A stretch of 64,000 nt of DNA, from NCBI GenBank assembly GCA_045617325.1, contig JAZLIJ010000066.1, forward strand, positions 1,787 through 65,786. The letters are read 5' to 3'. Within the stretch, counting starts at the first letter, position 1. The number at the start of each line of letters is the position of its first letter. This DNA is from Fibrobacter sp. (GTDB lineage: Bacteria; Fibrobacterota; Fibrobacteria; Fibrobacterales; Fibrobacteraceae). Position numbers and translations under genes: made by a program. The notes under the pieces were generated by a model. The model made no database searches and was not told where the DNA came from. It saw only the letters and a list, made by a program, of their open reading frames with translations. This document shows positions 34,292 to 37,637 of the stretch, piece after piece.

Positions 34292-35649
<1,358 letters not shown>

Positions 35650-36036
35650 AAATCGTCCCTGTAAATGCGAAAATGGATAGAAGTTAAATCATTCAAACGT
35701 ATTATTTCAAGATAATACAATTCCCGGAAATGTCAACCAGACAATTCTACAGCAGCGGTGAATTTGCAGAAACATTTTCTACAATTAAGCGCATTCGTGA
35801 AATTCCAAATATTATCAACAACAAAACGCAGATCGAGTTCAAGCGAACAGCTGGTGACGGACGGAACAAATAAAGTCTTGGCTTCGGTTTTATATTTTTC
35901 ATACTTTACAAACTACTCCTTGTACAGGCAAAAAACAAGAGGCTTCATTTCTCTAAAAAAATTAAAATCTTAGAATGTCATATTTTGACAAAAGCCTATT
36001 TTTTCTCCTTTTGCCTCAATTTTTCAAAAATTTCTC

Positions 36037-36065
36037 TTGCCATTCCTACAGGAATTTCGTATATT
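36037..36065 (+). promoter_or_regulatory. sigma-70-type promoter for the trp leader (TTGCCA-17 nt-TATATT)
   Basis: -35 TTGCCA at 36037-36042, 17-nt spacer containing the palindrome TTCCT-AC-AGGAA, and -10 TATATT at 36060-36065. Only 7 nt separate the -10 from the leader ATG, implying a leaderless or near-leaderless transcript. Confidence 0.45.
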
Positions 36066-36072
36066 TTGGCAC

Positions 36073-36123
36073 ATGAAAAACGTAACAACAAGCATCAAGT
36101 TCTGGTGGTGGCAGACCCTATAG
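36073..36123 (+). CDS. tryptophan attenuator leader peptide MKNVTTSIKFWWWQTL
   Basis: 16 codons plus stop, read directly. There are three consecutive TGG codons at 36103-36111, immediately upstream of alternative hairpins and a terminator, and 129 nt upstream of trpB2. Confidence 0.75.
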   Translation: MKNVTTSIKFWWWQTL

Positions 36124-36164
36124 TTAGGAGTCTGGTATTTTTGTTTTAGTTTTCATAAAGAATC

Positions 36165-36191
36165 AGGCTCCTCGAAAGGAGCCTTTTTTTA
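36165..36191 (+). terminator. attenuator terminator of the trp leader
   Basis: AGGCTCCT (36165-36172), loop CGAA, AGGAGCCT (36177-36184), then TTTTTTT. The upstream AGGAG (36126-36130) can pair with CTCCT of the left arm (antiterminator). CAGAC (36112-36116) and GTCTG (36130-36134) form the anti-antiterminator next to the Trp codons. Confidence 0.75.
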
Positions 36192-36251
36192 TGACACTGG
36201 ACCGAACGAGGAGCCTGCAAGTTACACCCTACATTAACGAGGATAAATAAA

Positions 36252-37637
36252 ATGAGAAATTCTCTCAAGATTGACGGACAGTGCAAGACTTACCTTAAAG
36301 AAGACGAGCTTCCGAAGGCATGGTACAATGTACGTGCCGACATGAAGAAGAAGCCGGCTCCGCTCCTCAACCCGAAGACTTTGAAGCCGGTCACTTTCGA
36401 AGACCTGCAACCCGTTTTCTGCGACGAATGCATCAAGCAGGAACTGGACGAAACGACAGCCTACTTCCCGATTCCGGAAGATATCCTGACGTTCTACAAG
36501 ATGTACCGCCCGAGTCCGCTCGTGCGCGCCTACTTCCTGGAACAGGCCCTCGGCACGCCGGCCCACATCTACTACAAGTTCGAAGGTAACAACACGAGCG
36601 GCAGCCACAAGCTGAACTCCGCCATCGCCCAGGCCTACTACGCAAAGCAGCAGGGTTTGAAGGGCGTCACCACGGAAACGGGTGCCGGCCAGTGGGGCAC
36701 GGCGCTCAGCATGGCTTGCGCCTTCTTCGACTTGGATTGCCAGGTTTACATGGTCAAGTGCAGCTACGAACAGAAGCCGTTCCGCCGCGAAGTGATTCGC
36801 ACCTACGGCGGCAAGGTGACTCCGTCGCCTTCCATGACGACCGAAGTCGGCCGCAAGATCAACGCGGAATTTCCGGGTGCAACGGGCAGCCTCGGCTGCG
36901 CCATTTCCGAAGCTGTGGAAGCGGCTCAGGCCCAGGAAGGCTACCGCTACGTTCTTGGTTCCGTGCTGAACCAGGTGCTTTTGCACCAGACGGTGATTGG
37001 CCTCGAAACCCAGGCTGCCCTCAAGAAGCTTGGCGTCAAGGCCGATACCATCATCGGTTGCGCAGGCGGCGGCAGTAACCTCGGCGGCCTCATCAGCCCG
37101 TTCGTCGGTGAAAAGCTCCGTGGCGAAGCGGACTACAAGTTCATCGCCGTGGAACCGGCAAGCTGCCCGAGCCTCACTCGCGGCAAGTACGCCTACGACT
37201 TCTGCGACACGGGCTGTGTCTGCCCGATGGCCAAGATGTACACGCTCGGAAGCAAGTTCATGCCTTCCGCAAGCCACGCAGGCGGCCTCCGCTACCATGG
37301 CATGAGCACCATCCTTTCGGAACTTTACGACCAGAAGTTGATGGAAGCCCGCTCCGTGGAACAGACGAAGGTGTTCGAAGCAGCCGAAATATTCGCCCGT
37401 ACCGAAGGCATCCTCCCCGCTCCGGAAAGTAGCCACGCCATCCGCGTCGCCATGGACGAAGCCCTGGAATGCAAGAAGACGGGCGAAGCGAAGAACATCG
37501 TGTTCGGCCTCACCGGCACCGGTTACTTCGACATGATGAGCTACGCTCGCTTCAACGACGGGACGATGGGCGACTACATCCCGACCGACGAAGAAATCCA
37601 GGCCAGCTTCGCTAAGATGCCGAAAGTAGAGTTGTAA
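36252..37637 (+). CDS. TrpB2-type tryptophan synthase beta subunit (stand-alone TrpB-like PLP enzyme)
   Basis: 461 aa, the long TrpB2 form. Contains LPKAWYNVRADM, PLP-lysine region NTSGSHKLNSAIAQA, GCAGGGSNLGG and HAGGLRYHGM. No trpA is adjacent. Confidence 0.85.
   Translation: MRNSLKIDGQCKTYLKEDELPKAWYNVRADMKKKPAPLLNPKTLKPVTFEDLQPVFCDECIKQELDETTAYFPIPEDILTFYKMYRPSPLVRAYFLEQALGTPAHIYYKFEGNNTSGSHKLNSAIAQAYYAKQQGLKGVTTETGAGQWGTALSMACAFFDLDCQVYMVKCSYEQKPFRREVIRTYGGKVTPSPSMTTEVGRKINAEFPGATGSLGCAISEAVEAAQAQEGYRYVLGSVLNQVLLHQTVIGLETQAALKKLGVKADTIIGCAGGGSNLGGLISPFVGEKLRGEADYKFIAVEPASCPSLTRGKYAYDFCDTGCVCPMAKMYTLGSKFMPSASHAGGLRYHGMSTILSELYDQKLMEARSVEQTKVFEAAEIFARTEGILPAPESSHAIRVAMDEALECKKTGEAKNIVFGLTGTGYFDMMSYARFNDGTMGDYIPTDEEIQASFAKMPKVEL

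Follow-up and report, generated by a model that had tools for sequence, protein, structure and literature searches.

A candidate tryptophan attenuator with a Trp-Trp-Trp leader peptide upstream of a stand-alone trpB2 gene in Fibrobacter

The trpB2 locus and its leader

This analysis concerns the leader region upstream of a stand-alone trpB2 gene in a 64,000-nucleotide (nt) stretch of DNA from Fibrobacter sp. (assembly GCA_045617325.1, contig JAZLIJ010000066.1, positions 1,787 to 65,786 of the forward strand). This whole stretch is called the window here, and its first letter is position 1. A sequence-only reading of the window had described the leader as a tryptophan attenuator following the logic of enterobacterial trpL, with a short open reading frame (ORF) containing three consecutive Trp codons ahead of an intrinsic terminator. 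All coordinates given there were correct when the sequence was re-read, and scans for consensus promoters and terminators agreed with them. The locus comprises the following features.

36037..36065, plus strand: sigma-70-type promoter, -35 box TTGCCA at 36037-36042, 17-nt spacer, -10 box TATATT at 36060-36065
36073..36123, plus strand: leader ORF MKNVTTSIKFWWWQTL followed by TAG, 16 codons, kept in 17/17 variants
36103..36111, plus strand: a run of three Trp codons (TGG TGG TGG), proposed as the sensor
36112..36120, plus strand: segment 1 CAGACCCUA, 5' arm of the 1:2 hairpin directly after the Trp codons, with CAGAC at 36112-36116
36125..36136, plus strand: segment 2 UAGGAGUCUGGU, able to pair with segment 1 or segment 3, with AGGAG at 36126-36130 and GTCTG at 36130-36134
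36137..36161, plus strand: U-rich and then A-rich spacer, forming the inner A-U helix of the antiterminator in the fold of 36124-36174
36162..36172, plus strand: segment 3 AUCAGGCUCCU, which serves the antiterminator as its 3' arm and the terminator as its 5' arm, with AGGCTCCT at 36165-36172
36177..36191, plus strand: segment 4 AGGAGCCU at 36177-36184 with T7 at 36185-36191, an intrinsic terminator together with segment 3
36239..36243, plus strand: Shine-Dalgarno-like GAGGA of trpB2, outside every leader helix
36252..37637, plus strand: trpB2, a stand-alone TrpB-like pyridoxal-phosphate enzyme of 461 amino acids (aa), families NF009057 and TIGR01415

In the promoter scan, TTGCCA-17-TATATT reached 10/12 consensus matches. 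The -10 box is separated from the leader ATG at 36073 by the 7 nt TTGGCAC, and because this gap measures 6-7 nt in all variants described below, the leader ORF is probably leaderless or preceded by a 5' untranslated region (UTR) of 1-2 nt, with the transcription start placed by its distance from the promoter. The terminator at 36165-36191 consists of AGGCTCCT (36165-36172), the loop CGAA, AGGAGCCT (36177-36184) and T7, and has 8 pairs, 5 of them G-C, according to the terminator scan. The core of segment 2, AGGAGUCU, differs in one base from segment 4 and thus mimics it, which is the usual design of attenuators. The Trp-codon 9-mer TGGTGGTGG occurs only once when both strands of the window (128 kb of sequence) are counted, and a composite pattern of W-run, AGGAG, CTCCT-NNNN-AGGAG and T-run has 1 match in the window and 0 in 100 dinucleotide shuffles.

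The product of trpB2 scored 668.2 bits against NF009057 (cut-off 366, E = 4.5e-201) and 567.7 bits against TIGR01415 (cut-off 518.85). Against the canonical trpB model TIGR00263, it reached 144.6 bits, which is below the cut-off of 392.45. Flanked by tgt (minus strand) and ruvA (plus strand), the gene is not part of a trp operon, and no trp gene was present among the neighbours of trpB2 at any locus examined. Both the family scores and the neighbours agree with the earlier proposal that a lone TrpB2-type beta subunit is the regulated gene. The proposed host, a Fibrobacter, is also borne out, since the closest relatives of the TrpB2 protein are Fibrobacter proteins: it is 93-98% identical to a cluster that includes the proteins MCQ2063143.1 and MCQ2122081.1 from metagenome-assembled genomes (MAGs) of Fibrobacter sp., and 86-87% identical to named F. 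succinogenes and Fibrobacter sp. sequences. An exact look-up of the window's TrpB2 protein returned no record.

Conservation of the leader in Fibrobacter

A total of 17 distinct leader variants was collected, 6 of them reached via the TrpB2 protein alone and 11 more via a DNA pattern. The ORF, its Trp-Trp-Trp run (WWW) and the terminator are present in every leader-bearing Fibrobacter trpB2 locus, which is the outcome that the sequence-only reading had asked of orthologous leaders. In 17/17 variants, the leader lies directly upstream of trpB2 in the same orientation, with differing other neighbours. The protein-anchored leaders with WWW are those of the loci L087, L088 (identical in ten contigs), L097, L100 and L103. 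The first four belong to the window's own TrpB2 cluster, and L103/L104 represent a more distant lineage with an 84% identical TrpB2 and the leader peptide MKNVTRINLWWWQAL. Counting distinct sequences, WWW is present in 6/6 protein-anchored leaders, including L103.

For metagenomes, a strict pattern requiring CTCCT-NNNN-AGGAG gave 0 matches. A relaxed pattern, fitted to both clades and demanding TGGTGGTGG, GGAGTCT and AGGCTCC, matched 23 contigs. Thirteen of these carry true leaders, all of them (13/13) directly upstream of a trpB2 gene encoding MRNSLK...; the 10 others were rejected as chance matches inside G+C-rich coding DNA. The geometry of the leader across the variants is as follows.

-35 box: TTGCCA in 16/17 variants, TTGTCG in L107
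-10 box and promoter spacer: TATATT and 17 nt in all 17 variants
-10 box to ATG: 6-7 nt in 17/17 variants, with varying intervening bases (TTGGCAC, TGGGGGT, ATAGGCC, CTTTGC)
Leader ORF length: 15-16 codons, except for L107 with 22 codons and a stop downstream of segment 2
Gap between W-run and segment 2 core: 14-17 nt
Gap between stop codon and segment 2 core: 2-3 nt in 16/17 variants
Gap between segments 2 and 3: 25-32 nt

The flanks of the promoter and the sequence of its spacer diverge among the variants, as do the N-terminal codons of the ORF and the region after the terminator, while everything from W-run through terminator is near-invariant. The peptide in front of WWW varies accordingly (MKNVTTSIKF, MKSAMSIKF, MKFVASINF or -Y, MKIVTSINF, MKNVTRINL). 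The stop codon is TAG or TAA, and its frame and position are kept while the surrounding loop bases change. A U-rich tract follows segment 2 in 14/15 aligned variants.

Between the end of the T-run and 1 nt before the trpB2 ATG, the window contains a 19-codon ORF, MTLDRTRSLQVTPYINEDK (36191-36250). It was ruled out as a conserved second short ORF, since the corresponding frame of L088 stops after 9 codons and L110 is without an ATG. A third segment-4-like copy inside this ORF, AGGAGCCTG at 36210-36218, was also rejected as window-specific; relatives have AGGAACCTG or other sequences at this place.

Alternative RNA structures

Three helices compete in the leader RNA. The 1:2 hairpin (36108-36138, -13.9 kcal/mol) combines CAGAC:GUCUG with CCUA:UAGG and carries the stop codon in its loop. 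The 2:3 antiterminator (-17.8 kcal/mol) has 11 contiguous pairs between AGGAGUCUGGU (36126-36136) and AUCAGGCUCCU (36162-36172) plus the inner A-U helix, and is longer than described before. The 3:4 terminator (36165-36184) has a predicted energy of -13.4 kcal/mol. The antiterminator excludes both the 1:2 hairpin and the terminator, and the energies are comparable, so that the mutual exclusivity claimed in the sequence-only reading holds. The fold of the 130-nt leader reaches -41.2 kcal/mol compared to -26.0 +/- 3.4 kcal/mol in dinucleotide shuffles (z = -4.5).

The effect of a ribosome was modelled by masking its footprint on 15 variants. For the masking geometry, a ribosome is known to cover about 12-13 nt on the 3' side of its P site. 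With the footprint on the Trp codons, the antiterminator was the minimum free energy structure of the nascent RNA ending after segment 3 in 15/15 variants, in line with the sequence-only reading, which had suggested folding with and without such a mask. When the footprint was moved to the stop codon, it blocked segment 2 and no antiterminator was formed. Across all 15 variants, the energy of 2:3 ranges from -14.3 to -20.0 kcal/mol and that of 1:2 from -7.6 to -14.5 kcal/mol.

Unguided, RNAalifold predicts the 1:2 hairpin and the 3:4 terminator from 15 variants. In these two helices, 88.8% and 90.8% of the alignment cells are paired, respectively. For the complete termination and antitermination structures, 89.7% and 84.8% of the cells are paired, compared to 37-62% when the partners are slid against each other. 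Most of the variation is one-sided and wobble-compatible, for instance A:U to G:U in 1:2 and U:A to U:G in 3:4. L122, L103 and L107 keep the 1:2 helix via register shifts and multiple changes on both arms.

Another pairing connects the two ends of the terminated RNA. Positions 36075-36080 at the 5' end of the leader, just after the AUG, can pair with the U-tract of the terminator (36185-36190), and two of these positions switch from AA/UU to UU/AA between clades. The proportion of paired cells is 97.8% compared to 83.6% in shuffles, and 0/500 shuffles reach that value. This pairing may give the terminated RNA the form of a closed panhandle; alternatively, it may reflect one chance event between two clades.

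Loci without the leader

Three loci fetched via their TrpB2 proteins have no leader: L083 with an F. succinogenes-type protein, L084 from Fibrobacter sp. UWCM, and L086. In the alignment, they share the promoter and the Shine-Dalgarno sequence with ATG with the leader-bearing loci, and only the approximately 170 nt between these are missing, which leaves about 30 nt between the promoter and the trpB2 ATG. The natural attenuator deletions, each with the TTG(T/C)CA-17/18-TATATT promoter and the AAAGGA Shine-Dalgarno sequence kept, are located as follows.

L083: 1925-2009
L084: 1918-2009
L086: 1915-2009

The leader is also absent from a fourth Fibrobacter lineage, L101/L102, which have a different promoter after rplI and are alignable over the 3' UTR only. 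All loci without WWW lack the whole module, and the module is thus lost as one unit. An upstream epimerase gene is common to L122, where the leader is present, and L084, where it is absent. The AAAGGA/GAGGA motif before trpB2 is retained with or without the leader and, in the window, lies outside all leader helices, which favours transcriptional over translational control.

Proposed mechanism

The best explanation of the leader is ribosome-mediated transcription attenuation, by which trpB2 expression would be adjusted to the supply of charged tRNA-Trp, and a response to tryptophan is predicted. We assign this interpretation a probability of roughly 85%. Sequence elements, energetics, geometry and conservation all agree with the trpL-like logic proposed for the WWW leader. 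The features by which leader-peptide attenuators are recognised were found together, namely an ORF with Trp codons before a Trp-making gene, an intrinsic terminator, competing helices and a suitable geometry. The logic fits the target since the product of trpB2, according to its family assignment, makes Trp from indole and serine; a role of TrpB2 in indole salvage is cited in PMC11085991 and has been reported for Thermococcus.

Transcription from the TTGCCA-17-TATATT promoter would start on the A of the AUG at 36073 or no more than 1-2 nt away from it, and the 16-codon ORF would be read from a leaderless or near-leaderless 5' end. If Trp is plentiful, the ribosome would pass WWW and reach the UAG at 36121-36123 in the 1:2 loop, where its footprint covers segment 2; after its release, 1:2 would re-form and also hold segment 2. 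Segment 3 would then pair with segment 4, and the G+C-rich hairpin with U7 would stop transcription near 36190, yielding a terminated RNA of about 118 nt. If charged tRNA-Trp is scarce, the ribosome is expected to stall with a Trp codon in its A site, and its leading edge would cover segment 1 (36112-36120) and leave segment 2 free. Segment 2, which starts 15 nt past the last Trp codon, could pair with segment 3 on emergence, whereby the terminator would be blocked and the polymerase would continue into trpB2. Without translation, both 1:2 and 3:4 would form and lead to termination. By analogy with E. coli trpL, the 1:2 hairpin and the U-rich tract at 36137-36153 may act as an RNA polymerase pause site that synchronises ribosome and polymerase.

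Several observations weigh against this interpretation. At equilibrium, the full-length RNA favours the terminator even with segment 1 masked, and antitermination must therefore be kinetic and co-transcriptional. Such a dependence on co-transcriptional kinetics is common to all attenuators. Compensatory covariation is sparse, with 1 pair changed on both sides per alternative structure, and the covariation score was equalled by 16/500 shuffles for the termination structure and by 67/500 for the antitermination structure. Since this shuffle test of the variant alignment gave no strong statistical support for covariation in 1:2, 2:3 or 3:4, the argument is built on conservation, geometry and energetics. 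This conservation is partly shared ancestry because the variants are close relatives. In addition, the three motifs demanded by the relaxed pattern are invariant in the 13 metagenomic loci by construction, which limits the independent test of the W-run and of the segment 2 and segment 3 cores to the 6 protein-anchored sequences. In several variants, two A residues stand between the terminator stem and the T-run. Lastly, no Shine-Dalgarno sequence precedes the leader ATG, so that translation would require leaderless initiation.

Alternative explanations

The alternative that survives best, and is still very unlikely, is that the unit from promoter to terminator is mainly an independent gene of about 118 nt for a small RNA or small peptide acting in trans in the manner of rnTrpL and peTrpL in Sinorhizobium, with its position before trpB2 being secondary. 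A promoter of its own and a terminator that looks efficient are in line with such a unit, as is the covarying pairing between 5' end and U-tract, by which the terminated RNA would become a closed panhandle. Trans functions of attenuator-derived small RNAs and leader peptides have been documented (PMC6614838, PMC7298713). However, each of the 17 variants is found directly in front of trpB2 in one orientation amid differing neighbours, and the module is lost whole while the promoter and trpB2 stay. The 5'-3' covariation possibly reflects the single event between two clades mentioned above, and a trans function would supplement attenuation in cis rather than substitute for it.

Slightly less probable still is a constitutive, partly leaky terminator or an RNA-stability element, in which the WWW ORF would be an untranslated coincidence kept by descent. 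The weak compensatory covariation, the absence of a Shine-Dalgarno sequence before the leader ATG and the close relationship of the variants, whose TrpB2 proteins are 84-99% identical, are in line with this explanation. It is at odds with the start, frame, W-run and stop position, which are kept in every variant while adjacent bases change, and with the uniqueness of TGGTGGTGG in 128 kb. Moreover, the leader sits before a gene for Trp synthesis, and the trpB2 genes of Bacteroidales and of a Kiritimatiellota MAG are preceded by WWW leaders that are unrelated or very distantly related.

Both remaining alternatives are highly improbable. In a TnaC-like mechanism, the nascent WWW peptide and free L-tryptophan would arrest the ribosome and high Trp would induce trpB2; a short Trp-containing peptide with its stop near a regulatory RNA recalls tnaC in outline, but induction by Trp is metabolically senseless for a gene that synthesises Trp, an intrinsic terminator and a competing antiterminator are present, the attenuator model needs no Rho-utilisation features (none were sought), and the peptide outside WWW varies freely (MKNVTTSIKF, MKFVASINY, MKSAMSIKF), whereas arrest peptides are usually conserved along their full length. 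Sensing by a TRAP-like protein or a T-box-like tRNA interaction instead of a ribosome, the usual solutions for Trp in Firmicutes and one of them present at the related trpB2 locus L018 as a T-box of 95.5 bits, is contradicted by the lack of any match to the T-box model (RF00230) or another Rfam family in 35500-36700 at E <= 10, with the T-box model picking up the L018 element and hence working as a test, by the leader length of about 118 nt, which is too short for a T-box, and by the few, irregular (G/U)AG triplets (36121, 36125, 36128, 36147, 36179), since TRAP needs 9-11 of these separated by 2-3 nt.

Comparison with known systems

The Rfam cmscan of 35500-36700 at E <= 10 returned noise only, which was driven by the terminator (FopS, isrD, mir-4000) and far below the gathering scores. 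The attenuator proposed here resembles the enterobacterial trpL leader (RF00513, Trp_leader) in its tandem Trp codons near the end of a short ORF, its 1:2, 2:3 and 3:4 helices, its stop codon just before segment 2, its U-run terminator before the structural gene and the antitermination expected from a stalled ribosome. It differs from trpL in that there is no similarity in sequence or to the covariance model (RF00513 was not listed at E <= 10), in its three instead of two Trp codons, and in its target, which is a single stand-alone trpB2 instead of trpEDCBA. In addition, the Fibrobacter ORF lacks a Shine-Dalgarno sequence, starts 6-7 nt from the -10 box and is probably leaderless, and the phylum is Fibrobacterota.

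The nearest known relative by lineage and target gene is the Bacteroid-trp RNA motif (RF01692, 'Bacteroidete tryptophan peptide leader RNA'; Weinberg et al. 2010, PMC2864571), which shares the WWW leader peptide, the terminator and the Fibrobacteres-Chlorobi-Bacteroidetes (FCB) group. WWW leaders with terminators were found in Bacteroidales MAGs before trpB2 orthologs that are ~80% identical to the window's, for example MGFTCNNTWWWRLLQLNES, at the following positions.

L046: 36-184
L047: 2787-2943
L048: 2668-2806
L057: 2792-2939
L064: 2783-2931

These five leaders were the best non-self matches of a Fibrobacter covariance model (R1), with 15-27 bits in the right place and on the right strand, and the terminator stems of the two groups are similar (AGGUUCCU compared to AGGCUCCU). 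The Bacteroidales leaders are sub-threshold matches of RF01692, which scores 36.5 bits on L047 and thus stays under its gathering score of 49 bits; the window is not matched by RF01692 even at E <= 10. The peptides differ as well (M.FTCNNTWWWRLLQLNES in Bacteroidales, MKNVTTSIKFWWWQTL in the window), the Bacteroidales ORF runs 8 codons past WWW, and its helices differ from those of the Fibrobacter leader. Taken together, these sequence comparisons suggest either distant homology or convergence of the Fibrobacter and Bacteroid-trp leaders, and membership in RF01692 is not established.

Leader-peptide attenuation of Trp genes outside Proteobacteria has also been predicted by comparative genomics in Actinobacteria, including candidate attenuators upstream of trpB2A in Corynebacterium diphtheriae, an operon whose first gene bears the name trpB2 (Seliverstov et al. 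2005, PMC1262725). That case differs in phylum and sequences, its trpB2 is in an operon with trpA, and the likeness of the target is drawn from the gene name. The leaderless polycysteine short ORFs of mycobacteria, which act on translation (Canestrari et al., bioRxiv 10.1101/834739), are similar in having a sensory ORF at a 5'-terminal AUG, where pausing on a codon run for one amino acid remodels the downstream RNA. In contrast to these, the canonical intrinsic terminator of the Fibrobacter leader points to transcriptional control.

Control of trpB2 in other phyla

A scan of genome contigs with the full-length TrpB2 protein listed matches that are all non-Fibrobacter orthologs. Among the matches listed (L001-L080), TrpB2 is 77-83% identical to proteins from gut and rumen MAGs of Lachnospiraceae, Ruminococcus, Treponema, Bacteroidales, Lentisphaerae and Kiritimatiellota. 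This unusually high identity across phyla suggests horizontal transfer or very strong constraint.

In the Kiritimatiellota MAG L056 (~2770-2960), a different WWW leader with a GTG start, MKRSAFNFFWWWRRGSCVRGPVAV, is located before trpB2. Together with the Fibrobacter and Bacteroidales leaders, it suggests that control of a lone trpB2 by a WWW leader recurs in at least three phyla. At gathering thresholds, Rfam found the T-box of L018 and nothing else in 17 trpB2 loci of other phyla. In L036 and L040 (Treponema/Spirochaetaceae), a near-identical block, TTGACAGAAATAA.TTCCTGTTATATATTACAA..TGTTATTTGTTTCT.TAAAAAGAAAC, lies ~100-150 nt upstream of trpB2. By its sequence, this block looks like a promoter with a small hairpin or operator, and thus like a different, uncharacterised form of trpB2 control.

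Significance

The kind of system described here is textbook knowledge. What is new is a conserved Fibrobacter leader family that is absent from Rfam and from searchable papers; a search of the literature for Fibrobacter together with leader peptide, attenuation or tryptophan found no paper. The lone trpB2 as target, the probably leaderless leader ORF and the natural deletions of the whole module are also new. With this leader, classical leader-peptide attenuation would be extended to Fibrobacterota, which are major cellulose degraders of rumen and hindgut. If TrpB2 salvages indole, salvage would be switched on only when charged tRNA-Trp is low, which is relevant in indole-rich gut habitats. 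The leader-deleted lineages represent natural controls that should express trpB2 constitutively, and the conserved gap of 6-7 nt makes the leader well suited to the study of transcriptional attenuation with a leaderless sensor ORF. The variant alignment and the model R1 can be used to annotate such leaders in genomes and MAGs.

A broader and speculative scenario, which is unlikely as a whole, would treat the Fibrobacter and Bacteroid-trp leaders as diverged branches of one WWW-leader family. In the form of a promoter-proximal cassette, this family would move between gut and rumen phyla together with trpB2, and it would be acquired or deleted whole. Here, the leaderless AUG would load the first ribosome as the 5' end emerges, and the RNA of ~118 nt, closed by the pairing of 5' end and U-tract, would remain stable and have a separate function as a small RNA or as a source of peptide.

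Neighbouring sequences

The intergenic region between tgt and trpB2 (35474-36036 up to the leader promoter) measures 778 nt in the window and 258 nt in L087, a MAG contig of the window's TrpB2 cluster with the same tgt-trpB2 arrangement. The extra DNA holds a small divergent gene and a 47-aa ORF (35730-35873), the latter without a Pfam match. The small gene encodes 52-63 aa (MAID..L..GQ......EHSLSAT.KVMPLH.G...), is conserved and transcribed divergently from trpB2 in several Fibrobacter lineages, and is found with or without the Trp leader, at the following positions.

Window: 35470-35649, minus strand
L084: 1678-1869, minus strand
L110: 3872-4048, plus strand
L117: 196-354, minus strand
L127: 401-577, minus strand

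It has no Pfam or NCBIfam match at E <= 10. Over its first 37 codons, 55, 31 and 132 differences were counted at codon positions 1, 2 and 3, respectively, a pattern that indicates a coding sequence. The 5' UTR of the gene is conserved, a promoter-like site of its own is present at 35736-35709, and the next gene downstream varies, being tgt in the window and the epimerase gene in L084.

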